DNA of 23,986 nucleotides from Promethearchaeati archaeon (lineage in GTDB: Archaea > Asgardarchaeota > Heimdallarchaeia > JABLTI01). Made by a program: the position numbers and the translations under genes. Of this stretch, positions 2,377 through 21,644 are shown piece after piece (position 1 is the first letter of the stretch; each line of letters begins with the position of its first letter). Under the pieces are notes generated by a model, which saw nothing but the letters and a program-made list of their open reading frames with translations, had not been told where the DNA came from and ran no database searches. The stretch lies in the NCBI GenBank assembly GCA_013166835.1, contig JABLTI010000038.1, positions 1 to 23,986 on the forward strand, given 5' to 3'.

Positions 2377-3909
2377 TTGTCTGAGGAGTTATTTATAGGG
2401 TTGAAGCGATCTGAAAAATTCAAAGAGTTTCTTAGACGAAATTGGATCATTATACTCATCTGGTTTGTTGCTTTAGTAATTAGAATTTTAGCTGCTGTTT
2501 TTAGCAAAGGGTATATTCATCCTGATGAACAATATCAGTCAATTGAAGTAGCATACAATGAGATTTTTGGATTTGGGAAACTTCCATGGGAGTTCATAGA
2601 GGGTGCGCGCTCTTGGTTGTATCCATACATTGTTGTTGTGATTTTCAAAATTATGATCTATTTTGGGGCAACGAATATTGAAACAATTCTAATTGGTGTA
2701 AGATTGTTTTCCGGTTTAATGTCAATGATAACAGTAATCGTTGCTTACTACTTTGGAAAAAAATTATACAGTAAATTTGTTGGCATTATTGCATCTGGTT
2801 TTGTAGCAATTTGGTTTGATTTTATTTTTTGGTCAACCAGGACTATGACAGATAGTATCGCTATGAATTTCTTCTTTTTAGCTGCATATTTGGTATACTG
2901 TAGCATTCAAAAAGGAAACAAGAATAGTAATAAAATTGAGAGAAAGTTTTTCACGAAAAAAATTTTACAAAGTTTTTTTGCTGGAATTTCAGTAGGATTG
3001 GCTTTCATGTTTAAATTTCCAGTTGCAGCAATTGGTTTACCTTTGTTTATTTGGATAATTGTACATAAGAAATGGAAGGAGCTAGCTTTCTTTACAGGAT
3101 CAATCATTCTCTTGGTTATTGTTCAAGGCTTAATTGATTTAGCTACTTGGGGGTCATTTTTGCATTCAGCCATAACTTTTCTTGACTATAATATTATCTC
3201 AGGTGGAGCAGCATCTCATGGGACACATCCCTTCGGATCATATGCGGCATTGCTTGTGGATTCTTATTTAGAGTATTTCTTAATTTTTCTTCTCTTCATA
3301 TTAATAGCTCTACAAAAGGACAAGAAGACTCTATATCTTGGTTCTATCGTGGTGTTTTATCTTCTTATATTTACATTCATTAAACACAAAGAATATCGAT
3401 TTATATTACCTATTATGTTTTTACTAGTCTTATTAGCAGCAAAAGGATTTGCAAAGTACCCAAAATTTATTCATAAAGCAAATTTGCGAAAAGGAATATA
3501 TTTATTTTTTATAATTCTGACAATTATTTATTCCGGTGTCATGAGTTTTTCATTAAAATCATTTCGACCTAATAATCAGCATTGTCTTGCTTTTCAGTAT
3601 GTTGGCAATTTACCTGATGTAGATGTTGTAGCTACTCTTGAAGGTCCTGGATTTGGAGCTCCTGGTTTGAGTTATTTACAAAAAAATGTTACCTATTTAA
3701 CAGGTTCTATTGCGAACATAGATTATTTCTGTACACATTATAAATCGTCTACTCTCTTCATTGTAATTCATGAGAAAGACTACTTAGAACGAGAATCATA
3801 CATTACGACTATCTTTAATGTAAGAGGAGTCAGTTTGAATATGACTTTTTCAGGAACTCATGATAGATTTGATAGTACTGTGTTAGTTTTCAAAAAACCA
3901 ATATCATAA
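2377..3909 (+). CDS. GT-C fold mannosyltransferase, Alg9/PIG-B/PIG-Z (SMP3) family (Glyco_transf_22-like)
   Basis: Multi-TM. First-loop motif GYIHPDEQYQSIEVAY...LPWEF...RSWLYP, then RTMTDS and HKEYRFILP, match the family pattern (xPDExxQxxE, TWEW...RS, HKExRF). TTG start after AAGGT. Confidence 0.85.
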   Translation: MSEELFIGLKRSEKFKEFLRRNWIIILIWFVALVIRILAAVFSKGYIHPDEQYQSIEVAYNEIFGFGKLPWEFIEGARSWLYPYIVVVIFKIMIYFGATNIETILIGVRLFSGLMSMITVIVAYYFGKKLYSKFVGIIASGFVAIWFDFIFWSTRTMTDSIAMNFFFLAAYLVYCSIQKGNKNSNKIERKFFTKKILQSFFAGISVGLAFMFKFPVAAIGLPLFIWIIVHKKWKELAFFTGSIILLVIVQGLIDLATWGSFLHSAITFLDYNIISGGAASHGTHPFGSYAALLVDSYLEYFLIFLLFILIALQKDKKTLYLGSIVVFYLLIFTFIKHKEYRFILPIMFLLVLLAAKGFAKYPKFIHKANLRKGIYLFFIILTIIYSGVMSFSLKSFRPNNQHCLAFQYVGNLPDVDVVATLEGPGFGAPGLSYLQKNVTYLTGSIANIDYFCTHYKSSTLFIVIHEKDYLERESYITTIFNVRGVSLNMTFSGTHDRFDSTVLVFKKPIS

Positions 3910-4521: not shown

Positions 4522-5358
4522 ATGTCATCAAAGAAAGATAAGAAAAAGAAGAAATCTATTCCGAAAAAGGAGATTCTAAAAGTTATCAAGGATGTCGAAT
4601 ACTTAGATTTAGGTGATCCTTTTGGAGAAAGTGCTCGAAGGTATCTTTCTTTTCAGATAAGTAAATTCATTGACAATGAGGAAGTTTCAGGTTCTATTAT
4701 AACTCCAGAAGGAGTTTATATTTCTCTTACTGCTACTGAAGTAAAAGACATTGTTCGTTTAATTAAGGCTAAAGGAATTTTTGAAATTGAAGCAGTAGCT
4801 CTAGAAAATAAGTGGCCCGTTGAAACTGTGAAATTAATCGCACAAAATCGTGTGAACTTACTCTATCGAAAAGATGGGAAAGCAATTACTCGAGAGACAG
4901 CCCTAGATTTACTTTATCAACAGATTATACAAGGATTAGATTTAGATATCTATGAAATTGCAGATGAATTAGAATTGAAACGATCAATAACAAGAGACCT
5001 TCTGATGACACTAATTAATGAAGGAAAAATAGAAGGCTATTATATAAAATCATCACATAAATTCCTCCCAATTGAATTACTAGAAGAATCGATTAGGGAA
5101 CTGATTGAAGATTTCGAAATGAAAAATGTATCAGAAGTGAAATTCAGTGAGATTGCAGATGAATATGGCATAGGAGAAGAAGAGGTTTACAATATCCTAC
5201 TAAAATTGTACAATGTTGGGGATATAGATGTTCAGCTAAATCTAGGGCAGAAAATCTGTTTCATTAAAGATAATCTCGAGAGAGAAGAATGGGATGAACG
5301 CATCCCTGAAGAAGAGAAGAAACTGGAAATTGAGGACCTAACACAAAAAGATAAATAA
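4522..5358 (+). CDS. Tandem winged-helix (PCI-like; UFL1/DDRGK-like) protein
   Basis: About four ~60-aa helix-turn-helix-plus-wing units, e.g. IYEIADELELKRSITRDLLMTLINEGKIEGYY and FSEIADEYGIGEEEVYNILLKLYNVGDIDVQL. Lys-rich N-terminus and acidic C-terminus. Confidence 0.65.
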   Translation: MSSKKDKKKKKSIPKKEILKVIKDVEYLDLGDPFGESARRYLSFQISKFIDNEEVSGSIITPEGVYISLTATEVKDIVRLIKAKGIFEIEAVALENKWPVETVKLIAQNRVNLLYRKDGKAITRETALDLLYQQIIQGLDLDIYEIADELELKRSITRDLLMTLINEGKIEGYYIKSSHKFLPIELLEESIRELIEDFEMKNVSEVKFSEIADEYGIGEEEVYNILLKLYNVGDIDVQLNLGQKICFIKDNLEREEWDERIPEEEKKLEIEDLTQKDK

Positions 5359-5441
5359 GCTTATCTTTGGGATGAAAAGAAAGTTTTTATGTAGAGTAAA
5401 TAAATGTCATAAAAGAAAAACTAAAAATTGGAGATTAAACA

Positions 5442-6218
5442 ATGAGCGCACCACCAAAACCAAAAAGAAAAATGCCAGACGAATACGATGTATTAACTAT
5501 AAAACTAGCAGCCAAACTGAAAAAGGAAGTTGGATCTGAAATTGCAGCCTTACTATTAGTTGGTAGTGTTGGTCAAGGTAATTATGTGAAAGGAGATTCA
5601 GATTGTGACTTCTACATTGTTATCAAAAAAGATCGTGACAAACAAGTAGAAATTCTGCAAAAAATAGGGATGGTAAAAGCAGAATTTGAAAATGACCCAC
5701 AATATTCATCAATTTTAGATTTGATGGTCTTCTTTGAAGAAGATCTCAATGAACAGAATATCAATGCATCAAGTATTGTTAATTGGGTGCATATTTGGAC
5801 AGGGCAACAAGGGGTTCTTAAAATCGGTAAGGACAATCCTTTCAGTAAATTAAAAGTTACCGAGGAAAAACTCAAATTAGGCGCAACACAAATGTGCCTA
5901 GATAATGTTTTCATCATGCGTGATGGTTTCTTAAATACTCCAGCTGCAAATACTGATGAATTAGCTTTTTATGGAAGTGAAGCAGCTATTGCTTGTGCTC
6001 AAGCATTACTAGTTTTCATTGGTGAAAAAGGATTCAATAGATATAGTGTTCCTGAGCTTTTCAAAGAAAAGTCTCCAGTAAAGGCTTCTCCAAAGGTTGT
6101 TATCGATGCTCGTGATTTCCGTTTAGGTGCAAAAATCGATAATGTTACCGATTTCGTAGAAAAATGCTACGACTTTGGGTGGGCAATTCTCGAATATATG
6201 TTAAAGAATACAAAATAA
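5442..6218 (+). CDS. Pol-beta superfamily nucleotidyltransferase with a C-terminal helical (HEPN/KNTase-like) domain
   Basis: LLLVGSVGQGNYVKGDSDCDFYIV (hGS...DxD), third Asp in ILDLMV, helical C-domain with AIACAQALLVFIGE. GGAG SD upstream. Confidence 0.8.
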   Translation: MSAPPKPKRKMPDEYDVLTIKLAAKLKKEVGSEIAALLLVGSVGQGNYVKGDSDCDFYIVIKKDRDKQVEILQKIGMVKAEFENDPQYSSILDLMVFFEEDLNEQNINASSIVNWVHIWTGQQGVLKIGKDNPFSKLKVTEEKLKLGATQMCLDNVFIMRDGFLNTPAANTDELAFYGSEAAIACAQALLVFIGEKGFNRYSVPELFKEKSPVKASPKVVIDARDFRLGAKIDNVTDFVEKCYDFGWAILEYMLKNTK

Positions 6219-6246
6219 TCTCAAAATAGTACAGAAGGAATAAAAC

Positions 6247-6918
6247 TTGACTTATCGTAGTGATATTGTTCATTTGAGAAGTTTAGTTGGAAAAACTGAC
6301 GCTCAGATTTATCTTATCGTAGGTCCTCCTGGAGCAGGGAAAGAAGCTTTTGCTTTACAATATATGATTGATGGATTCTCTGAAAAGAATAATGCTGTTT
6401 TTATTACCACAGATGATTTTCCGGATGACATAATAGGCAAAATGAGAGAAATGGGATCTGATGCTAAGCCACACATTGATTCAAAACAATTACAATTTAT
6501 CGATGCTTTCTCATATAGAACTGGAGAAAAAATTGATAGAGATATGTTAACGGTGGAAAACGTTAGAGATTTAACTGGCATCAGTGTTATTTTGAAGAAA
6601 CAGATCGATACCAAAGAAAATCTCCGATTAGTCTTCAATACAATTTCTACAATATCTATCTATAATAGTGGCATAGCCTTACTTGATTTCATTCAAGCAC
6701 AAGTAGCTCGACTTAAGCAAAGAAAGCACAGTGGTTTAATATTAGCTCATGAAGGTATGATGGACGAAAAAGTAATCCAGGGTATTAAAGCATTTGTTGA
6801 TGGCGTTATAGAATTTAAAGCTGAAGAAGACGAAAAAGGTGTCTTACAAAGAAAACTCCGCATTGTTTTTGCTCCGAATATTAGAAAATCTGGTTGGATC
6901 AATTTATACCAAGAATGA
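6247..6918 (+). CDS. RecA-superfamily KaiC/RAD55-like ATPase, single domain, degenerate active site
   Basis: YLIVGPPGAGKEAF (Walker A), VFITTDD, FIDAFS, LVFNTIS (Walker B position), VDGVIEF. TTG start 28 nt after the NTase stop. Confidence 0.85.
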   Translation: MTYRSDIVHLRSLVGKTDAQIYLIVGPPGAGKEAFALQYMIDGFSEKNNAVFITTDDFPDDIIGKMREMGSDAKPHIDSKQLQFIDAFSYRTGEKIDRDMLTVENVRDLTGISVILKKQIDTKENLRLVFNTISTISIYNSGIALLDFIQAQVARLKQRKHSGLILAHEGMMDEKVIQGIKAFVDGVIEFKAEEDEKGVLQRKLRIVFAPNIRKSGWINLYQE

Positions 6919-6920
6919 TT

Positions 6921-6968
6921 TAGTGTGCTAGGAATCGCACATCTATTCATTTTCTTTCTTTTCTCTTT
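6921..6968 (+). terminator. Weak hairpin plus T-rich tract after the KaiC-like gene
   Basis: TGTGC (6924-6928) / GCACA (6937-6941) followed by TTTTCTTTCTTTTCTCTTT. Confidence 0.4.
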
Positions 6969-7031
6969 AATATTAGAATTATATTGATAAATTTAAATAG
7001 ACCATTGATAAGAATTACCTCGTGGACTTAA

Positions 7032-7727
7032 ATGGCTGAATGGTATAACTATGTTCTTGCTTTGTCACCTTCCGTTGTGATACTTGGATTATATTTAGCA
7101 AGTTATCTCATTGGAAAAAGAAAGAATAAGGCATTTGCACTTGAGATGCTGTCGAAAATTGCAGTTCCACTGAATGATTTTTGTGATTCCTTCGAAAAGG
7201 TTACCCAAGAAAAGGAACGCTATCAGTTGGTATGCAGACCAATCAAAGATGCTCCAATGAAGTCTATGATCGTTCTCGGTATTCCTTTAGGGAGACCGTT
7301 TATTATAGGGTTCATTTGGGATAAAATTAAGAAAAACAAAGATAAATACACACTCTCAGCAAATTTGAGGAGAAGACCTCCTTTTTCACTTGAAGTACTC
7401 TCTAAAAAACGAAAGAAAGTCTTGAAAGGAGACCAAGATTATTTTATGGAACTAAAGGAGTTAAGCACTACAGGATTTCTCAATGAATTTTTTATTATTA
7501 AAACAAATAATACCAAAATGGCAACTAAAGTCCTTTCGAATGAACCATTGTTAAGATTACTAGCAAAAACTCGAAATCAGACACTTTGGTTATCCTTGAG
7601 AGAAGAAATAAAAGAAGTTGGAATGCAATTCGAGTCTATTTTTGAGTATGAAGAAGAACAAATTGAAAATACTGTTGATCTGTTCTTAGAAGTTATAGAA
7701 GCAATACCATATCCTAAGAATTGGTAA
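7032..7727 (+). CDS. Single-pass membrane protein, CCDC47/DUF1682 (PAT complex subunit)-like
   Basis: N-terminal TM ending YLASYLIGKRKNKAFA resembles the CCDC47 post-TM motif (recalled as YIMNYIIGKNKNSRLA). Downstream segments are collinear with the CCDC47 globular domain. Candidate TATA TTTAAATA at 6992-6999. Confidence 0.65.
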   Translation: MAEWYNYVLALSPSVVILGLYLASYLIGKRKNKAFALEMLSKIAVPLNDFCDSFEKVTQEKERYQLVCRPIKDAPMKSMIVLGIPLGRPFIIGFIWDKIKKNKDKYTLSANLRRRPPFSLEVLSKKRKKVLKGDQDYFMELKELSTTGFLNEFFIIKTNNTKMATKVLSNEPLLRLLAKTRNQTLWLSLREEIKEVGMQFESIFEYEEEQIENTVDLFLEVIEAIPYPKNW

Positions 7728-7765
7728 AAAATTGTGACTATTTAAACGCATCATTTCACTTATAC

Positions 7766-9277
7766 TTATTTTCGAATTTGTGCGAGCACTTCGGGGATTT
7801 TTTCGATAACATCAGTTGCCAATAAACTGTTACCAAAATCCTCTGCTGCAAATTCTCCTGCTTTCCCAGTTAGATAAGAAGCAGCACAGGATGCTCTGAA
7901 TAAGTTTGAATTAACAGCACAAATTGCTCCAAGAATCCCTGCAAGAACATCTCCTGTACCACCAACAGTCATTCCTTCATGTCCGGTTCTATTGATTTTG
8001 TATTTTTGTCCATCACTGATAATATCATATTTACCTTTTAATATGACAGAACAGCTATGCTTCTTCGTTTTCTCTAGAACAATTTGAATTTGATCTTGCC
8101 AGTTTTCTTTCAACACATCTCCAAATACAATCTTAAATTCCCCTTTGTGTGGGGTTAAGACAATTGGTTTATTTTTTAATATTGCTAAATTTTCTGATAG
8201 AGCCTTTAATGCATCAGCGTCAATCACAATTGGTTTATTTTTCGGAATTTGATCTAAAATCTCAGTTACAAATTTGAGAGATTGTGGATTATCACTCATC
8301 CCAGGACCTAAGACCATTACATCGAATTTTTTGAAAATTTCAAGGATTTCGGGGATGTGATTTGGTGTTAAATACTCTCCTTCAAGTTGTCGAACAATCA
8401 TATTAGGGGAATCAGATCTAACAGAATTTGCTATACTTTCCGGAATGCAAGTGATTACTAAATCAGCCCCAGTTCTTAAAGCAGCTCTAGAAGCCAAAAC
8501 AGGAGCACCTGAATATTTACTACTCCCACCAACCACTAAAACAGATCCATTTTCACCTTTATGAGAAGTGGCTTTTCTTTTTGGTATTGCTAGGTGTAGG
8601 TCACCTTTTCCAACGAAAAGCTCTGCTTCTGGTGGCACACCAATTCCTTTCACTATTGTTTTTTCTTTCAATCCTTCTATTGTTAAGCAAGGTTTTGTGT
8701 CGTGAAATGTTACAACTAAATCCGCTGTAACCATCATTTTTGTTTTCTTCGGAATATCAGAAAACATACCAGATGGCAAATCTACACTTATGGTTGGTTT
8801 GTTAGCATTATTCAATGCCTTAATCGCACTTTTAATTGGTTCATAGGGTTCACTAGTAATTCCAATACCTAGTAAAGCATCAATTATTAATTCTACATCT
8901 GTTAGCTCATTTTTCATACGAGAAATTTTAGAGGAATCATTTATTATAATAATATCAATCGAATTCTCCATTTGTTTCAATATTTTAAAATTCTGTTTTG
9001 AGATAGTAGTTCGGATTTTGTTCTCTTGCCCAAGTAAAATAAGTTTTATTTTGCGATCCTTTGATGCAAGATGTCTTGCAGCAACCATCCCATCTCCACC
9101 ATTATTTCCTGTTCCACAGCAAATTGCTATAGATTTTGTTTTTGGATAATGCTCTAAAACCACCTGAGCTACTGCTGCTCCTGCATTCTCCATTAATTGG
9201 GCTACAGAAACACCTAATTCTTCACTGTTTAGATCGATGATTTTTACTTCTTCGGCAATTAAAACCATTGGTTTCAT
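7766..9277 (-). CDS. nnr: Bifunctional NAD(P)H-hydrate epimerase/dehydratase (YjeF)
   Basis: LMENAG, GTGNNGGDG, DALLGIG, SVDLPSG, HKGENG, GPGM, DADAL, LTPHKGEF, GGTGDVLAG. Confidence 0.95.
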   Translation of the reverse strand: MKPMVLIAEEVKIIDLNSEELGVSVAQLMENAGAAVAQVVLEHYPKTKSIAICCGTGNNGGDGMVAARHLASKDRKIKLILLGQENKIRTTISKQNFKILKQMENSIDIIIINDSSKISRMKNELTDVELIIDALLGIGITSEPYEPIKSAIKALNNANKPTISVDLPSGMFSDIPKKTKMMVTADLVVTFHDTKPCLTIEGLKEKTIVKGIGVPPEAELFVGKGDLHLAIPKRKATSHKGENGSVLVVGGSSKYSGAPVLASRAALRTGADLVITCIPESIANSVRSDSPNMIVRQLEGEYLTPNHIPEILEIFKKFDVMVLGPGMSDNPQSLKFVTEILDQIPKNKPIVIDADALKALSENLAILKNKPIVLTPHKGEFKIVFGDVLKENWQDQIQIVLEKTKKHSCSVILKGKYDIISDGQKYKINRTGHEGMTVGGTGDVLAGILGAICAVNSNLFRASCAASYLTGKAGEFAAEDFGNSLLATDVIEKIPEVLAQIRK

Positions 9278-15423: not shown

Positions 15424-16374
15424 TTAGAAAGAAAAGACTCCGAGTAAGATAGTGCCAATGAATATTGCTAAAGCGATTACAATCATTATAGTGAAAATAG
15501 ACCAATGCCATTTCAAAATATAATGACCATTTGATAGTCTTATTGGGATTAGACTTATCAAGACAATTTGTGAAGTAAAGAAAGCAGCATTTATGAAAAA
15601 CATAGCAATGATAACATCTGGTAAAAACCAACCTAGAAAAATAAAGGTAATACCAAGTGCTAAATTGATGAATAAACCAATGGAACTAACAAGTCCCTTC
15701 TGTTTTTTAGTCATTAAATGGATTTCAGGAATAACTACCAAACCTGGGAAGAAGATTATCTTAATGGGAGAAATTGACATAACCAAATTAATTATTAGAC
15801 CTATTTTTGAAAGCACATATCTTGAGGAGAAGCCATATTTCTTAGCTAAGAGCTTCTTTGGAAAAACTAATGAGAAATACACTAGGATTATATTGAGTGA
15901 AAAAAATACAAAAAAGTGCCAGGGTAGACTTGACATTAAGATTGAGATAAAACTGTATGAAATGATCATTAAGAGTAAACCTAAGAGGAAATCTAGGATT
16001 TCATTGCCAACTGAAAAATAATCACCAACCATAGAAAAGAATAAACGATCCATTGCTTTTCTTCTGGTAGGTCTTGTGGTGTAGACTTGACCTGAATCAT
16101 CGGTTGTATAATAGTGAGAATCTGATTCAAAATATTCAGGTTCGATTGGAGCACTTTTCCTTCTTTGACGTCTTGTCCTTTTCTCACTAACTTTTACTTG
16201 TGTTTCTTCCTCTACATTTGATTGTGTATAGGATGGAGAAGTAGCAAGATGAAGTTTCTCACAATCATGGTTTTCAGGTAGACGATGTGTGGTACAAAAT
16301 GACTTAGTGCAATATCGACATTTGAAAGGTAAAGCTTCCTTTCTATCACAAGTAGGATATTGACAAGTTACCAT
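15424..16374 (-). CDS. AN1-type zinc finger fused to an M50 (site-2 protease)-like membrane domain lacking catalytic residues
   Basis: CQYPTC...LPFKCRYCTKSFCTTHRLPENHDC (AN1). The membrane part follows the archaeal M50 pattern (KLLAKKYG, FFPGLVVI, GLVSSIGLFINL, SLIPIRLSNG) without HExxH or the catalytic Asp. Confidence 0.8.
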   Translation of the reverse strand: MVTCQYPTCDRKEALPFKCRYCTKSFCTTHRLPENHDCEKLHLATSPSYTQSNVEEETQVKVSEKRTRRQRRKSAPIEPEYFESDSHYYTTDDSGQVYTTRPTRRKAMDRLFFSMVGDYFSVGNEILDFLLGLLLMIISYSFISILMSSLPWHFFVFFSLNIILVYFSLVFPKKLLAKKYGFSSRYVLSKIGLIINLVMSISPIKIIFFPGLVVIPEIHLMTKKQKGLVSSIGLFINLALGITFIFLGWFLPDVIIAMFFINAAFFTSQIVLISLIPIRLSNGHYILKWHWSIFTIMIVIALAIFIGTILLGVFSF

Positions 16375-16457: not shown

Positions 16458-17975
16458 TTATATTGGGATTACAGGGATTGATTCCTTGCCAAGAAGCTCT
16501 TTCGAACATTTTATGAACTCTACAGATGTCCTAGTAAGATACCAGATGATAGTCACAAATATTATGGAAACCCAGACTACTACTGGAATAATTTGAGTTA
16601 GTCGTAATGCAGGTTGTACGATTATTAGATAAAAGAAAGAATTCTCTGAAGCAGCTAATTTAGATAATTCTAGAAAAGTTACTGGATTATAAGCTTCATA
16701 GATCACTAGTGCAATCCCATGGATTAGTGTGAGCAAAGTGTATTCAATTAGCAATCCTTTCTTTTTCCGAAGCGCTATGAATGGAATAAACCAAGCTAGA
16801 ATTTGGATGTTTATTGCTTTGAAACTAATCGCAAATATGAAAATAGGCAGAAAAACTAGCAGCGTAATTGTAGAGAGCGGTAGCTTATCAATGGTATGTG
16901 TTTTCATTAAACCCTTATATCTTAGAATATAGATGAGAAACACTATGAAATAGATCCCAACAAAAAGTGGCAAGTAGAGTTTTTGAATAAACCAAGGTTC
17001 GTTTTGAGATGCATAAGTATCATCTATTCCTCCAACATACTTCATCTTGAAACCACTCCAGATAATGAACATTGCATTCCAGATAGAGAAACCATAGGCA
17101 ATATGAGAATTTCTTAACAAAATGGCTGAAATAAAATCTGAAGGAATTGTAATTAAGAACGGAAAGATGGGCAAGAAACCAAGAAGCAAACCCAAAAGAA
17201 AAGGTAAAATATCATCTTTTTTCATCCAGAAAATCACAAAAGGAAGAAAAATGAAACCGATGTATTTTGCTGAGGAACCTAGTGCAGCATAAAAAGCAAT
17301 ACCAAACCAATTACCAATCTGAATACAATAAATAACCATTGCAAAACAAAAGATGAGGAGACTATCGTACCTTCCACCACCAGTTTGAAATATTAACGGT
17401 AAACCAAATGCTACAAAATAGCCTGCAATTAATTTCGATTTTCTGACTTTTTCAAATGTAGGATCATCTAAAACATTGCCTTCGTAATCGCGCTTAATAA
17501 TGGCTTTCTCGACAATTTTCATCACAGCTAAAGCTATACCAATATCTGACAAGAGAAAAGGAAATTTCATAAAAACTCGAAGAGCAATGATATTGTTTTT
17601 CCAGGGACAAATGAAATACATAGTCACATACAAAATATCCGCTAAAGGCATATGTGTTGATTGAATATCAGTATAAAGTCTTTCACCTGCAAGAACTCTT
17701 TGAGCGATCTCAATGTAGAAATCAAAGTCCATTCCCCAATGTGTGAACAGGATAAAGAACATTCTACAAGCTATCACAAGAAGAATAATTCGTATTTCAG
17801 GCATTTGCCAGATTCTTTTGATAAAAGAAGCTACTTTTAACCAAGAAATTCTAGATCTTCTTGTAACTGTATTTCCAGCTAGCATATGATCTAAATCCCC
17901 TTCTATAAATTTCTGAGAACTCCTATTTCCAAATCTATTAAATAATTGATCCAAATCTATATCGAGTTTCTTCAA
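16458..17975 (-). CDS. GT-C fold glycosyltransferase, GT87/PIG-M (GT50)-like
   Basis: Multi-TM. First-loop GMDFDFY (acidic), LAGERLY...HMPL, KFPFLLSD, GRYDSL, AKYIGFIFLP, FKAINIQILAWFIP follow the PIG-M/GT87 motif order. TTG start after GGGG. Confidence 0.75.
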   Translation of the reverse strand: MKKLDIDLDQLFNRFGNRSSQKFIEGDLDHMLAGNTVTRRSRISWLKVASFIKRIWQMPEIRIILLVIACRMFFILFTHWGMDFDFYIEIAQRVLAGERLYTDIQSTHMPLADILYVTMYFICPWKNNIIALRVFMKFPFLLSDIGIALAVMKIVEKAIIKRDYEGNVLDDPTFEKVRKSKLIAGYFVAFGLPLIFQTGGGRYDSLLIFCFAMVIYCIQIGNWFGIAFYAALGSSAKYIGFIFLPFVIFWMKKDDILPFLLGLLLGFLPIFPFLITIPSDFISAILLRNSHIAYGFSIWNAMFIIWSGFKMKYVGGIDDTYASQNEPWFIQKLYLPLFVGIYFIVFLIYILRYKGLMKTHTIDKLPLSTITLLVFLPIFIFAISFKAINIQILAWFIPFIALRKKKGLLIEYTLLTLIHGIALVIYEAYNPVTFLELSKLAASENSFFYLIIVQPALRLTQIIPVVVWVSIIFVTIIWYLTRTSVEFIKCSKELLGKESIPVIPI

Positions 17976-18194: not shown

Positions 18195-19787
18195 TTATTT
18201 GCGTCGCTTAATTAAACCTATTGCTGCAACTGCGAGAAGTGCTGGAATAGCAACTAACCAAGTGTATCCTGGGAATATTCCACCTTTAATTGGATCGGGA
18301 GGATTGTAGTTTGGATTGATAATTTTGAAATCAAAATCAATGGAAATTGTTCCAGTTGGCATACCGGAGATTGTAGCGAAATCAGAAGTGATTGTTACAT
18401 CAACATCTGCTTTTATTCTCATTCCTGCGAGTACACCTGATTCTGAATAAGCTATCCAACCTTCTTGATGAAGAATTGCATTGATGTCGATTGTTGGATC
18501 AACTTGAGGATTAAAGAAACCTTCTGGAGTTATTAGTGCTAATGCTGTTGAAAATTCTACATCAACATCTATTGATTCTTTTAAGAAGAAGTAACCCCTC
18601 TTTTCCTCGACTCCAAATTGGGCATCGATTGAGTTAATTGTGAAATCTAAACCAGATGTTGTAGTAGGGATAAATGAGAGGACATCCTCTAGATAGATGC
18701 CAATAATTGTGTCAAATAAGACCATATAACCACCATAGATATCATAGTCAGCAGTTATTGCTGGAGCGTAGAAGTTTGTGAAAGTCATTCCAGTATCCCA
18801 CAATGGTGGTTCTTCTGTTTGGAATCCACCTAAGAAGCCCATGAACAGGTATTCGTTTACTGCTTTAACTAAGGATTCTGTAGTGAAATCATAGGAATAA
18901 ACATCTGCAGTGTAATAAAGCCCTTCAACGTCAGTAATTATATATTTTAGTAATGTTTGACCTTCCATACTTGCAATTTCATCTGTATAGCTATCTATCA
19001 TAGATGTATTGAGCATGGAATAAATATCACCAGTACCTTCTACTGCTAGATGAGCAATATCTGCTACTAATGCGATTTCTTGACCTATCGTAAGATCTAA
19101 TCCCTTAGTCTCTACTGAGGCAATAGCAATATCAAAAATCATGTCACTGTAATTCATGCCCATAATGTAAATGTCTTCAATGCGGATATTAGTTAGGATA
19201 CCATCAGATTTTCTATAAGTTGCAGACATAGAACCATCACCAATAGATATATGTGCTGTGAAGTCATCTGCCAAATTTTCAACTTCAAATCCAACAGCTT
19301 CAAGTGTAAGTTCATGAATAGCCCAGCCATCATCTAAGAAGAAGAATGTTGTTGGGTAAGATCCATTGAAATGGGGAACACCTGAAACAATTATTGCGGG
19401 AGTTGCTGCTCCGGTTGGTATAACTAAATCCAAGGCAGTAAATCCTTCACCGATAGTTATAGTTTCATCATTTTGGAAAATTAAACCCATTCCGTAATTG
19501 ATCCATTTACCAATTACTCCGGATCCAAAATCATTATCTTCTACAGACATAACTTTAACATATAATTGATTTCCTGCAAGATCCGAAATGGTTACATTTG
19601 GTATTGCTGGGAAAGCAAGCTCATTAATATCATATTTAATGGTCATTCCAGCAGTTACGCCAACGTCATCACCAAAAGTATTTGGAGTGTAAACTGGATC
19701 AACGGTATTATTTGTACCAATGACAGTTAACAAAGGTGTGAGCATTAGCATCATTGCTGTAAAAACTATTATTTTGTTCAACCTCAA
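18195..19787 (-). CDS. Cell-surface (glyco)protein with signal peptide, internal two-fold repeat and PGF-CTERM-like C-terminal anchor
   Basis: Likely TTG start at 19787, 7 nt after AGGTGA. Signal-like RLNKIIVFTAMMLMLTPLL. Acidic, beta-rich body with five N-x-S/T sequons. Ends PGYTWLVAIPALLAVAAIGLIKRRK. Confidence 0.8.
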   Translation of the reverse strand: MRLNKIIVFTAMMLMLTPLLTVIGTNNTVDPVYTPNTFGDDVGVTAGMTIKYDINELAFPAIPNVTISDLAGNQLYVKVMSVEDNDFGSGVIGKWINYGMGLIFQNDETITIGEGFTALDLVIPTGAATPAIIVSGVPHFNGSYPTTFFFLDDGWAIHELTLEAVGFEVENLADDFTAHISIGDGSMSATYRKSDGILTNIRIEDIYIMGMNYSDMIFDIAIASVETKGLDLTIGQEIALVADIAHLAVEGTGDIYSMLNTSMIDSYTDEIASMEGQTLLKYIITDVEGLYYTADVYSYDFTTESLVKAVNEYLFMGFLGGFQTEEPPLWDTGMTFTNFYAPAITADYDIYGGYMVLFDTIIGIYLEDVLSFIPTTTSGLDFTINSIDAQFGVEEKRGYFFLKESIDVDVEFSTALALITPEGFFNPQVDPTIDINAILHQEGWIAYSESGVLAGMRIKADVDVTITSDFATISGMPTGTISIDFDFKIINPNYNPPDPIKGGIFPGYTWLVAIPALLAVAAIGLIKRRK

Positions 19788-19821
19788 AATTATATCACCT
19801 AATGATAGGAATTTTTCCAAC

Positions 19822-19921: not shown

Positions 19922-20677
19922 CTAAGTGGTGGATTCTTCTTCTCCTGCTGGAGATATCTTGCCAAGATTGAAACCTATGATCTGGAGAATCGGTCCTGCT
20001 ACCCAGAATAACGTAGCAAAAATCCAAAACACTATTTCCCACGGACTGTCTGGGTTTATTTCATCAACAACTCCATTTAAGGCAAAAATTAGAACGCCTA
20101 ATACTATGAAAGTAAATCCTAAGATGACAAATAGAATTCTTTTCTTAATAACTGGATCATCTACTTCTTTTCTTGTTCTTGCAAAGTAAATATTCGCTAA
20201 AATGATCATAACAACAGGAACTAGGTATAGGAAAATTAAAACCCAAGGAGCATCTTGAGTGGTTTTAATCCCAGTACCAATATCTGTTTGATCTTCTGAA
20301 TCATAAACAACTTTGTCAAAGATTGCTCCTACTACTGTATTAGCAATTGCAAGGATTATAAGGGGAAAATTAACATACCACTTCTTTAGATAATGCTCAC
20401 CTTTATACATAGTAAAGGCTGTAGCGAAAATAAGAAATGCTCCAACAGAACCTCCCCCTGAGACAAAATCTCTGATAAGATTGGCACCAATTGTGGGATC
20501 TTTAAACAAGAAAGTTAACCCGTTTAATACTAATGAGATGCCCCATGCACAGAGAGAATAAAAGAAAAGAAGATTAAGAGTTGCTTTCACATCTTTTATT
20601 AGAATAAGAACACCGACTGTAATCGCTACAACTCCAGCTATAATATTAATAATGTTTATCGGATGCGAGGCAAACAT
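19922..20677 (-). CDS. Stand-alone seven-TM membrane protein (HisKA_7TM/5TM-7TM receptor-like sensor domain)
   Basis: Seven hydrophobic segments. N-terminal GVLILIKDVKATLNLLFF...W pattern typical of HisKA_7TM-type input domains. No cytoplasmic output domain. Confidence 0.65.
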   Translation of the reverse strand: MFASHPINIINIIAGVVAITVGVLILIKDVKATLNLLFFYSLCAWGISLVLNGLTFLFKDPTIGANLIRDFVSGGGSVGAFLIFATAFTMYKGEHYLKKWYVNFPLIILAIANTVVGAIFDKVVYDSEDQTDIGTGIKTTQDAPWVLIFLYLVPVVMIILANIYFARTRKEVDDPVIKKRILFVILGFTFIVLGVLIFALNGVVDEINPDSPWEIVFWIFATLFWVAGPILQIIGFNLGKISPAGEEESTT

Positions 20678-20864: not shown

Positions 20865-21644
20865 ATGAGTAAGAAACCTGATTTGAGAGCATTAGCTGGA
20901 ACAGTTCTAGAAGATGATGCGGATTTTGATGAAGTGCATATTTTGGGAGGACTCGAATCCAATCATAGTTTAAATGCAAATCTAGTAGATGTAAAAGGAT
21001 CAATAAAACTTCGTGGCAGTCTTTGGACGCACAGATTGAAAGTCTATGGTGGTTTGAGAATCGATGCAGATGTCATTGTTGAAATGGATATGGACATCAA
21101 AGGAGGATCAGTAGTAGGCGGGAAAATCCAAGCAAGAGATTTAGATGCATCAGGTGGAGTACAAGCTAAAGAAGGTATTAAGGTTACCAACTTGACTGTT
21201 AAAGGAGGAACAAAAAGCAATAAGCACATTGAAGTCGAAGAAAAAATCGACTCAACAGGAGGGTTAACTGCTTTTGGGAATATTTCAGCTTCCGAAATAA
21301 AATCTGTAGGGGGACTCATTGCTGAAGGAGACGTGAAGGTTCATGGTTTAGTTGATATAAGAGGGAAAGTGGAAGTCGGTGGGGATATCGAATGCGAGGA
21401 ATTCATCTTCAAAATAAGTTCACCTTCATTTGTAAATGGAAAGATAAAAGCGAATAAGATTACAATTGAAAAAGACGAACACGCCAAAATGGAAAGTTTT
21501 CTAAGAGTAACTGAGATTGTATCTCCAAACAGAATTGAAATAGATTATGTGATAGCAGAACGTGTGGTCTGTCCAAAGATGAAAGCAGGGCAAAACTGCC
21601 GAATTGGAGAACCATTGGACAAAGAATACGAACCAGAATATTAG
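20865..21644 (+). CDS. Bactofilin-like (polymer-forming cytoskeletal) beta-helix protein
   Basis: Roughly 17-aa repeats with alternating hydrophobics and GG/G turns. C-terminal IEIDYVIAERVVCPKMKAGQNCRIG resembles the end of long YhbE/YhbF-type bactofilins. GAGAGG SD upstream. Confidence 0.78.
   Translation: MSKKPDLRALAGTVLEDDADFDEVHILGGLESNHSLNANLVDVKGSIKLRGSLWTHRLKVYGGLRIDADVIVEMDMDIKGGSVVGGKIQARDLDASGGVQAKEGIKVTNLTVKGGTKSNKHIEVEEKIDSTGGLTAFGNISASEIKSVGGLIAEGDVKVHGLVDIRGKVEVGGDIECEEFIFKISSPSFVNGKIKANKITIEKDEHAKMESFLRVTEIVSPNRIEIDYVIAERVVCPKMKAGQNCRIGEPLDKEYEPEY

Follow-up and report, generated by a model that had tools for sequence, protein, structure and literature searches.

An Asgard archaeal protein resembling the core of CCDC47, with a possible role where membrane proteins insert

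Does the 231-residue protein encoded at this archaeal locus share its origin with the core of CCDC47, and what might it do in the cell? CCDC47 (calumin; PF07946, formerly DUF1682) belongs, as a subunit, to the PAT complex and also to the multipass translocon of metazoans and the SND3 translocon of fungi (6W6L, 7TM3, 7TUT and 9I78). According to the available sections of PMC7505659 and PMC12572126, its body lies at the back of Sec61 and touches the large ribosomal subunit, its TM helix holds the small TM chaperone Asterix, and its latch helices, a positively charged C-terminal coiled coil, reach Sec61 and the ribosome exit tunnel. The literature treats CCDC47 as a eukaryotic ER factor, and a 2022 Nature paper describes PAT components as absent from prokaryotes. 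A full-text literature search returned no paper joining CCDC47 or the PAT complex with Asgard archaea, and only plant papers for DUF1682, PF07946 and IPR012879. Archaeal CCDC47 is unmentioned in the available portions of PMC12572126, PMC7505659, PMC9630114, PMC11186639, PMC13261788, PMC8745461, PMC7616256 and PMC9816642, and the accessible content of six text supplementary files of PMC10307638 contains no CCDC47, PF07946, IPR012879, DUF1682 or calumin. An initial annotation of the 23,986-nucleotide stretch of DNA analysed here (the window) had proposed that one of its genes encodes a core-only archaeal CCDC47.

A conserved gene for a single-pass membrane protein

The window derives from a Heimdall-group Asgard archaeon, and the open reading frame in question, which opens with ATG, lies exactly where the initial annotation had placed it (Table 1). 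Its orthologues share the same start methionine in the alignment, and dN/dS is 0.053 against the L009 copy and 0.041 against the L004 copy, four further comparisons being saturated at synonymous sites. Judged from the sequence comparisons, a 231-residue frame conserved from the same methionine with a dN/dS of about 0.05 is a real gene. Two RNA-library contigs are identical to parts of it (7130-7280 and 7292-7442), for which DNA carry-over is possible. RNA-library and probable-DNA contigs together cover parts of 5400-7800, and the junction between the KaiC-like gene and the CCDC47-like gene falls outside the covered parts. Within the upstream spacer, which is possibly the gene's own promoter, the sequence tttaaata at 6992-6999 resembles a TATA box and lies 32 nt ahead of the start codon.

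Table 1. Features of the CCDC47-like gene, its product and its upstream neighbours (positions in the window)
Feature	Positions	Strand	Extent	Basis	Remarks
Pol-beta-type nucleotidyltransferase gene	5442..6218	+	258 aa	Pfam PF01909, E 3.2e-5	two genes upstream
KaiC/RecA-fold protein gene	6247..6918	+	223 aa	Pfam PF06745, E 4.3e-23	upstream; P-loop GPPGAGKE
AT-rich spacer	6919..7031	+	113 bp	sequence read directly	upstream of CCDC47-like gene
CCDC47-like CDS	7032..7727	+	231 aa	ORF list, orthologues, dN/dS, Pfam, model	stop codon 7725-7727
Extracytoplasmic N-terminus (predicted)	7032..7055	+	residues 1-8	sequence, hydropathy	
Single TM segment	7056..7112	+	residues 9-27	hydropathy, DSSP helix, alignment to 7tut_4 from 135	
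GKRKNK	7113..7130	+	residues 28-33		juxtamembrane G-x3-N motif with basic residues
Globular alpha/beta domain (predicted cytoplasmic)	7173..7700	+	residues 48-223	model, VIA-align, Foldseek	
Basic loop SKKRKKVLKGDQ	7401..7436	+	residues 124-135	conservation	
IPYP	7704..7715	+	residues 225-228		C-terminal motif at protein end

The product is a conserved single-pass membrane protein. The TM segment noticed initially is its only hydrophobic segment (residues about 9-27; Kyte-Doolittle maximum 1.94, in windows starting at 8-10) and is followed by GKRKNK. In the model, residues 3-47 form one continuous helix (DSSP), of which the TM segment is the N-terminal part. Ahead of the TM segment there are about 8 residues, with neither a signal peptide nor an acidic luminal-type domain, and no residues follow the globular domain, so that the description "core-only" is borne out. 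Because GKRKNK follows the TM segment, the positive-inside rule would make the topology N-out/C-in, with a short outer N-terminus and the basic globular domain in the cytoplasm. The segments from which the CCDC47 resemblance was originally read all occur in the translation: SYLIGKRKNKAFA, EKVTQEKERYQLVC, SMIVLGIPLGRPFII...KDKYTLSANL, FSLEVLSKK and LNEFFIIKTNNTKMATKVL...LLRLLAK...LWLSL.

No other part of the family's sequence is as well conserved as the G-x3-N motif. In the window protein together with 26 distant relatives, G28 is kept in 96% and N32 in 81%; R88 (96%), D104 and P116 are conserved positions of the globular domain. In 21 close relatives R127, V130, K132 and D134 of the basic loop are invariant, as are I225, P226 and Y227 of the C-terminal motif, while P228 is found in at least 90%. 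Residues 61-140 carry a net charge of +12 and the cytosolic part has a pI of 9.36; the loop at 124-135 might offer a surface to which RNA or acidic lipid could bind.

Resemblance to CCDC47 in sequence and fold

CCDC47 (PF07946) was the sole Pfam family matched by the protein at E values up to 10 (E 4.2e-6). The score of 26.6 bits falls 1.1 bits short of the curated cut-off of 27.7, and the best single stretch, which contains the G-x3-N motif, aligns only residues 15-58 with profile positions 9-49; taken by itself, the stretch scored 14.8 bits when all six frames were scanned. As a control, PF07946 gave weak sub-threshold matches in 2 of 14 unrelated genomes. An NCBIfam search with the window protein returned nothing. 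Relatives matched PF07946 independently, including 19 of the 34 members of the family alignment (E <= 0.01) and 12 of 27 distant representatives, the latter mostly over profile positions of about 5-250. Three relatives exceed the cut-off (P0049 at 33.5, L034 at 32.6 and L052 at 35.0 bits), two of which span nearly the whole profile; in L034, residues 18-307 align with positions 8-314 of 326. The Pfam comparison suggested in the initial annotation therefore gave a match below the cut-off for the window protein itself and matches above it for relatives. Among the CCDC47-like proteins encoded at 17 diverse loci, 12 were without any Pfam match at E <= 0.001.

A profile search of 1.84 billion representatives yielded only 33 proteins, of 43 to 302 residues, none of them the size of CCDC47 (about 480 residues in human). 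No longer, fused relatives of 530-2000 residues were found, and a wide-alignment search (116-529 residues) recovered archaeal proteins only and no eukaryotic CCDC47. Five archaeal-side sequence searches against all PDB chains reached no CCDC47 chain; the rows that they did return (bacterioferritin, ribosomal S20 and a designed coiled coil) are attributed to chance. PF07946 also matched weakly (15.6 bits, profile positions 233-289) at a second place in the genome, on contig C115; considered as a separately encoded tail, this match was rejected as compositional, because it lies inside a K/E-rich helix of a soluble 313-residue protein.

The AlphaFold model of the protein is confident (pLDDT 92.0, pTM 0.86), and the Foldseek comparison proposed at the outset returned translocon chains as its top three matches: 7tm3_4 (E 2.6e-10, TMq 0.73), 9i78_4 (4.5e-7) and 6w6l_7 (4.3e-6). 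VIA-align placed 222 of the 231 residues on 7tut_4 of the mammalian multipass translocon (Z 18.5, rmsd 3.0, 15% identity), with residues 7-231 of the model on chain residues 135-401, and gave Z 16.7 for 9i78_4 of the fungal SND3 translocon. Below these chains came TtfA (6t84_A, Z 11.4), and the next unrelated row scored 6.2. Chains 7tm3_4, 7tut_4, 6w6l_7 and 9i78_4 were assigned to CCDC47 by elimination, because in the sections on complex composition available from PMC7505659, PMC13261788 and PMC12572126 no other component apart from the Sec61 subunits is common to the complexes of mammals and fungi, and no other combines a single TMD with a globular domain and helices. Collinearity with CCDC47 rests on the structural alignment (residues 7-231) and the Pfam stretch (15-58).

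The Pfam results and the fold together relate this Heimdall-group Asgard protein to CCDC47 over its TM helix and globular cytosolic domain, which supports the homology proposed in the initial annotation, and we regard homology between the two cores as very probable. In both proteins the single TM helix continues into the cytoplasm and is accompanied by a juxtamembrane G-x3-N/basic motif, and both have the same globular alpha/beta fold, collinear over 222 of 231 residues. The archaeal protein differs in having neither signal peptide nor acidic luminal domain, in ending at IPYP without latch helices or coiled coil, in lacking a detectable Asterix, and in residing in an archaeal cell membrane instead of the ER.

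Distribution, C-terminal tails and divergence of the family

The family is present in 117 of 400 Asgard genomes and in 73 of the 83 genomes of the class, closed genomes included, which argues against contamination or recent import. Its lineages differ most visibly at the C-terminus. All 11 loci of the window protein's own family, f1 (L004-L014, including the window's locus L008), encode 0 residues after the globular domain, and a positively charged C-terminal coiled coil comparable to the latch helices is absent from all 11. Tails in f2, f4, f5 and f6 are 4-32 residues long and mostly polybasic, whereas those in f3 comprise 62-70 K/R/E-rich residues at 19 of 19 loci and open with an (L/Q)PIP motif similar to IPYP. 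A single long helix is predicted for the f3 tail (residues 252-307, pLDDT 92.9), and its inclusion lengthens the Foldseek alignments from 265 to 304 columns with 7tm3_4 and from 298 to 344 with 9i78_4.

The f3 proteins (for example L034, 308 residues; L052, 299 residues) are orthologous to the window protein over the TM segment and the globular domain, with profile E values of 1e-58 to 1e-67. They share its fold (Z 17.7 to 7tut_4) and are about 24% identical to it. They pass the Pfam CCDC47 cut-off that the window protein misses by 1.1 bits, carry the C-terminal helix that it lacks, and adjoin a gene for a Ras-like GTPase rather than the nucleotidyltransferase and KaiC-like pair. The most distant subgroup (P0030, P0037, P0043, P0049, P0050 and P0056) is 25-30% identical to an Asgard protein of family f9.

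The suggestion that the window copy could be an ancestral translocon chaperone is not supported here, either as to ancestry or as to the chaperone role. In an unrooted tree it sits on a long branch (stem of 1.65 changes per column), it deviates at positions 85 and 198, which are otherwise conserved in the family, and among the families nearest to it no other lineage lacks a tail. For these reasons the window copy looks like a divergent form rather than an ancestral one; the tree, being unrooted, allows a tail lost or a tail gained.

Possible function and alternative readings

Taken together, the best overall explanation is a homologue of the CCDC47 core that acts as a docking scaffold at the place where membrane proteins insert, to which we give a probability of roughly 55%. 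The functional part, taken by itself, is advanced by analogy with CCDC47, tentatively and at less than even odds. The protein would be anchored in the membrane where membrane proteins insert and would serve as a docking platform there, among ribosome, SecYE-beta and an Oxa1-type insertase, with the conserved juxtamembrane G-x3-N motif as a contact for a membrane partner. Because the latch helices are absent, it would be unable to brace or gate SecY as CCDC47 does.

Could the resemblance be spurious, or point elsewhere? A nonfunctional frame, or a chance likeness created by a basic stretch behind a TM helix, would account for a Pfam score below the cut-off, for a best stretch that coincides with the TM-plus-basic region, and for the weak PF07946 matches in unrelated control genomes. 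We consider this refuted, with hardly any probability left to it, by a dN/dS of about 0.05, full-length orthologues in 117 of 400 Asgard genomes, a confident model and a fold match (Z 18.5) spanning the whole globular domain; the resemblance of the 231-residue protein to CCDC47 exceeds chance (Pfam E value, 19 of 34 members, Z 18.5). A better-founded objection comes from TtfA (PDB 6T84), the mycobacterial trehalose monomycolate transport factor A, which supports MmpL3-dependent mycolate export, a pathway not known from archaea. Its alpha/beta domain shares the fold (Z 11.4, 157 of 178 residues, 6% identity), and since a bacterial protein does so, part of what the protein shares with CCDC47 is common property of a broader superfamily among prokaryotes; the literature searched contains no mention of TtfA together with CCDC47. 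Carried further, the protein would be one of many TM-anchored alpha/beta proteins in an ancient superfamily that spans the prokaryotes and takes in TtfA, DUF3137 and unnamed bacterial families. It would work like TtfA, as an accessory of a membrane transporter or lipid-export system, eukaryotic CCDC47 would be just another offshoot of the superfamily, and the CCDC47 likeness would say little about translocons. TtfA is indeed the third-best structural match (Z 11.4, and 11.3 for an orthologue; Foldseek E 4.1e-5), DUF3137 is matched by 2 of 27 distant relatives (P0037 at 31.7 bits, above that cut-off) and its model also matches in Bacteroides thetaiotaomicron, and the 30 nearest ESM-Atlas clusters are all unnamed (top score 0.96), with three listed as mostly bacterial; the TtfA family (PF28092) scores 0.78 there and CCDC47 0.79. 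These ESM-Atlas scores, however, are leads without alignment, with taxon labels resting on few members. TtfA scores far below the CCDC47 chains (11.4 versus 18.5 and 16.7), which also cover the TM helix (222 of 231 residues); its solved chain is the soluble domain only, and the likeness measured is one of fold. Within the family alignment PF07946 is matched by 19 of 34 members and DUF3137 by 1 of 34, and the long basic C-terminal helix of f3 is shared only with the CCDC47 family. The initial annotation had allowed for a better match to an unrelated bacterial DUF; DUF3137 (PF11335) is matched neither by the window protein (E up to 10) nor in its genome. A superfamily origin of this kind consequently seems improbable to us as the full explanation. 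Type III secretion chaperone/YbjN-like folds (SicP 1JYO, AvrPphF ORF1 1S28 and AmyR 5FR7) have a similar alpha/beta sandwich arrangement, but they lack the TM helix that the window protein has and any sequence signal, and their scores (Z 5-6 for the window model, up to 7.4 for an orthologue) lie in the range of a common arrangement.

The main rival to an insertion-site scaffold is suggested by the neighbouring genes. The CCDC47-like protein could be the membrane anchor or adaptor of a module with the nucleotidyltransferase and a KaiC/RecA-fold, largely pseudo-ATPase protein, tethering or regulating this cytoplasmic pair, for example in signalling or nucleotide modification rather than protein insertion, with the CCDC47 fold reused merely as a protein-binding platform. 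All three genes run in one direction, separated by 28 and 113 bp, and an RNA-library contig identical to the window spans the nucleotidyltransferase/KaiC-like junction (6066-6317). Synteny makes the KaiC/RecA-fold gene a recurrent neighbour in f1, f2, f4 and f5, its P-loop being lost in the f2, f4 and f5 orthologues, and the nucleotidyltransferase a recurrent neighbour in the same families and in f33. Among 20 chosen loci from 17 families, both neighbours occur within 3 kb in four (L051, f1; L049, f2; L035, f4; and L036, f5, rearranged), and the nucleotidyltransferase alone adjoins the CCDC47-like gene in L048 (f33). A KaiC-like gene is found in 8 of 11 f1 loci, the other 3 being cut by contig ends. 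Yet 15 of the 20 diverse loci lack these neighbours, as do all 17 f3 loci within 1.5 kb, which argues that the family as a whole is independent of them, and other families keep other company: a Ras-like GTPase in f3, and E2, JAB and Arf-like GTPases in f6. The 113-bp AT-rich spacer with its TATA-like box likewise suggests a separate promoter, and in PADLOC the CCDC47-like protein matched no defence system, while its two neighbours drew weak hits of a generic kind only. Co-folding residues 28-231 with the KaiC-like protein gave a score of 0.00 in two runs without controls, a result that speaks neither for nor against the association. On balance we judge the module unlikely to be the principal role.

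A larger proposal may also be entertained, which we hold to be speculative and rather doubtful: that eukaryotes received the scaffold of their PAT complex and multipass translocon from Asgard archaea, and that Heimdall-group cells already run a ribosome-docked "back-of-SecY" station for multi-pass proteins, in which the f3 forms would gate SecY through their basic helix and the tail-less forms would hold an Asterix-like TM chaperone through G-x3-N. Were this true, the published view that prokaryotes lack PAT components would be wrong. An Asgard family with a CCDC47-type body, and with a basic C-terminal helix in sister lineages, would add a further archaeal root of the ER translocon beside Sec61, OST, TRAP and Oxa1-type insertases, and the origin of the machinery that inserts multipass proteins would become testable in archaea. 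The tail-less form would offer a natural dissection, a CCDC47 body without latch helices and without a recognisable Asterix, and the link to the TtfA fold hints that prokaryotes have a broader superfamily of helpers anchored in the membrane.

Some observations count against the scaffold role. The latch helices, through which CCDC47 is known to act on Sec61 and at the exit tunnel, are absent here, and the same fold occurs in TtfA, which does a different job. Asterix was not detectable in 83 genomes of the class. As stated initially, no Asterix-like gene lies nearby: the spacers flanking the CCDC47-like gene measure 113 and 38 bp, and no small TM ORF stands beside it. In its own genome, which is 85% complete, Asterix (PF03669) gave only one 16.2-bit match containing 3 stop codons, and none of the 83 genomes of the class had a match over the cut-off, the 2 weak ones containing stops; the model itself matched in 4 of 14 control genomes, and a small TM protein could diverge beyond the reach of the profile. 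A search of the same 85%-complete genome did not find the ribosomal protein eL6, a eukaryotic contact of the CCDC47 globular domain according to PMC7505659. The TMEM147 model (PF09767) had no match in the genome and none in the control genomes either, and is uninformative. In favour of the scaffold role, the search for TMCO1 recommended in the initial annotation did recover an Oxa1/TMCO1-family gene in the genome, at 87.5 bits.

Sequence and fold relationship to CCDC47

The initial annotation had proposed kinship with CCDC47 for the open reading frame at 7032..7727. Its coordinates were borne out, and all archaeal segments quoted for it are present in the translation. Since 21 close relatives (71-90% identity) share its start in the alignment and dN/dS is 0.053 against locus L009 and 0.041 against L004 (4 other comparisons were saturated at synonymous sites), the frame is a real gene. 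The 113-bp upstream spacer is rich in AT and has a TATA-like box 32 nt 5′ of the ATG. Three contigs of RNA library X1 are identical to the window, two of them inside this frame (see table), DNA carry-over being possible. Contig C65, the window, belongs to a 3.56-Mb genome that comprises 260 contigs and is 85% complete. Among the other holders of a CCDC47-like gene are several closed single-contig genomes, an argument against contamination, and an artefactual origin is extremely improbable.

When the protein was compared with Pfam (E up to 10), the sole family recovered was PF07946 (CCDC47, DUF1682), at E 4.2e-6 and 26.6 bits, 1.1 bits short of the 27.7-bit cut-off, with residues 15-58 aligned best to profile positions 9-49; NCBIfam gave no match. 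This score would not be decisive by itself, as the same stretch reached 14.8 bits in a six-frame scan and two unrelated genomes of the 14 used as controls gave weak sub-threshold matches. A profile of close relatives searched against 1.84 billion representatives retrieved 33 proteins, 28 of 200-302 aa and 5 shorter fragments. Twelve of 27 distant relatives match PF07946 individually (E <= 0.01), in most cases along profile positions ~5-250, and one of the 27, P0049, exceeds the cut-off (33.5 bits). Two orthologues from the sister family f3 also exceed it: L034 (32.6 bits; residues 18-307 on profile positions 8-314 of 326) and L052 (35.0 bits; nearly the whole profile). In the wide family alignment A2, PF07946 is matched by 19 of 34 members and DUF3137 by 1. 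No Pfam match at E <= 0.001 was found for 12 of 17 CCDC47-like proteins scanned, and sequence searches from the archaeal side against PDB chains never reached a CCDC47 chain. By these profile scores the PF07946 signal is a family property, extending beyond the window protein.

The AlphaFold2 model computed from A2 (pLDDT 92.0, pTM 0.86) consists of one long helix (residues 3-47), an alpha/beta domain and a last helix at 208-223. Foldseek against the PDB placed translocon chains in the top three ranks, 7tm3_4 (E 2.6e-10, TMq 0.73), 9i78_4 (E 4.5e-7) and 6w6l_7 (E 4.3e-6), followed by mycobacterial TtfA (6t84; E 4.1e-5) and a next row at 1.6e-2. A Foldseek-independent aligner superposed residues 7-231 of the model on 135-401 of chain 7tut_4 (Z 18.5, rmsd 3.0, 222 residues, 15% identity), with Z 16.7 for 9i78_4, 11.4 over 157 residues for TtfA, and at most 6.2 for type III chaperone-like and YbjN-like folds. 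The four translocon chains were assigned to CCDC47 by elimination, because it is the sole non-Sec61 component common to mammalian multipass and fungal SND3 translocons and the only one described with an N-terminal TMD, a globular domain and C-terminal latch helices (passages of PMC7505659, PMC13261788 and PMC12572126). Taken together, the family-wide profile signal and the fold match uphold the proposed kinship, and we put the odds of homology between the window protein and the CCDC47 body at about 0.9.

Family distribution and C-terminal tails

With A2 as query (E <= 0.001), CCDC47-like matches were found in 117 of 400 phylum genomes (22 of 90 among those of high quality), which covers 33 of 85 genera. 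The window's own class, own genome included, accounted for 73/83. Family counts were 10/11 in f1 (the window's own), 1/1 in f2, 26/31 in f3, 3/3 in f4, 8/12 in f5, 22/22 in f6, 2/2 in f7, 5/5 in f13 (outside the class), 6/6 in f14, 7/7 in f24, 5/5 in f25, 4/5 in f28, 1/19 in f12, 0/14 in f19 and 0/135 in f20. Genomes of f6 often carry two paralogues.

The description of the window protein as core-only held. Only ~8 residues precede its TM helix, which leaves it without signal peptide or acidic luminal domain, and a conserved IPYP motif directly follows the globular domain, with a tail of 0 residues in 11 of 11 f1 loci and no latch helices. Eukaryotic CCDC47, in contrast, has both latch helices and a luminal domain. 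Tails in f3 span 62-70 residues in 19 of 19 loci (26-30 Lys/Arg, 10-16 Asp/Glu) and begin at a similar (L/Q)PIP motif; those of f2, f4 and f6 are polybasic and 4-10 residues long, and that of f5 is basic, with 27 residues. In the model of L034 (pLDDT 92.9) the tail forms one long helix, residues 252-307, and the body aligns with 7tut_4 at Z 17.7. Relative to the window model, the Foldseek alignment of tail-bearing L034 is longer, at 304 instead of 265 columns with 7tm3_4 and 344 instead of 298 with 9i78_4. Homology between the predicted f3 tail helix and the C-terminal helices of CCDC47 is likely, although Lys/Glu-rich helices may align by composition.

A maximum-likelihood tree of 21 proteins chosen to span 17 families, with a midpoint root for drawing only, placed f1 on a long stem (1.65 changes per column) as sister (support 92/90) to a group of f2, f3, f4 and f5 (89/87), all basic-tailed. 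Because the tree has no outgroup, it fits a tail lost in f1 and one gained by its sisters equally well. Among the positions best conserved between the window protein and 26 distant relatives, G28 and R88 reach 96%, D104 and P116 89% and N32 81%. At position 85, f1 has P where 85% of relatives have L, and at 198 M where 89% have P. Given these deviations at otherwise conserved positions, the window protein is, on the alignment, a divergent family member and no portrait of the ancestor; the suggestion of an ancestral form, set against the 1.65 stem, is not supported.

Partners and candidate role

The initial annotation had also proposed searching for Asterix and TMCO1. Asterix (PF03669) was above cut-off in 0 of 83 class genomes, two weak matches containing stops; the 85% complete own genome gave one 16.2-bit match with 3 stop codons, and 4 of 14 controls matched too. 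An Oxa1/TMCO1/EMC3-family protein is encoded there (87.5 bits), as in 3 archaeal control genomes. TMEM147 was not matched in this genome, its profile matching nowhere, controls included, and eL6, a mammalian contact of the CCDC47 body (passages of PMC7505659), was not found in the same 85% complete assembly.

The window protein has one TM helix, its single hydrophobic segment (residues ~9-27, Kyte-Doolittle maximum 1.94) being followed by GKRKNK. From the positive-inside rule we infer an N-out/C-in topology, which would make the basic domain (pI 9.36; net +12 over residues 61-140; last helix acidic) cytoplasmic. Passages of PMC7505659 and PMC12572126 place the eukaryotic body at the back of Sec61, in contact with eL6 and rRNA helix H25, with the TMD holding Asterix and the latch helices bracing Sec61 and extending to the exit tunnel. 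By analogy, the archaeal protein may serve at insertion sites as a docking scaffold, anchored in the membrane and holding a membrane partner; it cannot gate SecY. This tentative reading is suggested by retention of the CCDC47 body and by a juxtamembrane motif conserved far beyond the needs of a plain anchor.

A docking scaffold has to be weighed against a module formed with the two co-directional upstream genes (see table), which is unlikely. Both adjoin the CCDC47-like gene in 4 of 20 diverse loci (f1, f2, f4 and f5, rearranged) and the nucleotidyltransferase recurs without the KaiC-like gene in a fifth (f33); neither occurs in the other 15, and the 1.5-kb surroundings of 17 f3 loci contain neither. 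The KaiC-like neighbour looks like a RecA-fold pseudo-ATPase: its P-loop, GPPGAGKE with Glu where Ser/Thr is usual, is retained only in the window's genus and gone in f2, f4 and f5. Its orthologues in L049, L036 and L035 keep a D-x-FS(Y/F)R...E motif, YN and a C-terminal Trp invariant despite P-loop loss.

Less probable again is a TtfA-like accessory role inside a wider prokaryotic superfamily. The ESM Atlas speaks for it: the nearest 30 clusters of window:7032-7724 are all unnamed (top 0.96), and three listed ones (213-245 aa) are labelled mostly bacterial (Chloroflexota, Acidobacteriota); the nearest named clusters are CCDC47 (0.79) and a TtfA family (0.78), all of these being leads without alignments. 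The three may be bacterial relatives of the same architecture. TtfA, a mycolate-export factor, shares with model residues 32-231 the fold of the CCDC47 body (Z 11.4, and 11.3 for L034).

Earlier reports and further neighbours

What is known already is, by database annotation, the precomputed PF07946 tag on relatives (15 of 28 matches to the window protein); the nearest carry the annotation "hypothetical protein", their source given as Candidatus Heimdallarchaeota or Asgard group archaea and once as Thorarchaeota. The archaeal CCDC47 core without tail or luminal domain appears to be new. CCDC47 is called "conserved across eukaryotes" in a passage of PMC7505659, and passages of PMC11186639 report Heimdall TRAP homologues without mentioning CCDC47. 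Full-text literature searches returned no paper joining CCDC47 or the PAT complex with Asgard archaea (preprint supplements of structure-based Asgard surveys may list the family), and CCDC47's Pfam/InterPro identifiers only in four plant papers; the text supplements of PMC10307638 leave the family unmentioned. No paper in these searches named TtfA and CCDC47 together, and their structural link may be unreported.

Features of the window, in order of position
Feature	Position	Strand	Remark
ALG9-like GT22 mannosyltransferase	2377-3909	+	
Ribosomal stalk protein P1	3987-4295	-	
Protein with PCI/winged-helix match	4522-5358	+	278 aa; weak E3_UFM1_ligase (UFL1-like) match
Pol-beta-type nucleotidyltransferase	5442-6218	+	co-directional, upstream of CCDC47-like gene
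X1 RNA contig	6066-6317		spans nucleotidyltransferase/KaiC-like junction
KaiC/RecA-fold protein	6247-6918	+	co-directional, directly upstream of CCDC47-like gene
CCDC47-like gene	7032-7727	+	231 aa, ATG start
X1 RNA contig	7130-7280		inside CCDC47-like frame
X1 RNA contig	7292-7442		inside CCDC47-like frame
AN1 zinc finger protein (N-terminal finger)	15424-16374	-	316 aa; 7.7 kb from CCDC47-like gene
Large ORF	16458-17975	-	505 aa
Large ORF	18195-19820	-	541 aa
Large ORF	19922-20677	-	251 aa
Bactofilin-type match	20865-21644	+	259 aa; E 7.6e-7

Small GTPase genes are recurrent neighbours in f3, f4 and f6: in f3 (L034, L052) the gene directly upstream is Ras-like, in f4 (L035) a Ras-like gene is two genes away, and in f6 (L037) E2 and JAB genes lie upstream and two Arf-like genes downstream. 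Six of 20 loci have an NAD(P)HX repair gene nearby, which in the window is arranged tail to tail. The three consecutive large ORFs matched no Pfam family at E <= 0.001. In f25 locus L044 a SecY gene (6888-8315) lies 2.1 kb away with Nop5 between, one locus that may be chance. The PCI protein, P1 and GT22 (cut by the locus end) occur together by phmmer only in same-genus L051 among 20 loci. L052:393-1304 encodes a protein similar to the AN1 one, and the CCDC47-like gene of this f3 locus follows ~3 kb downstream.
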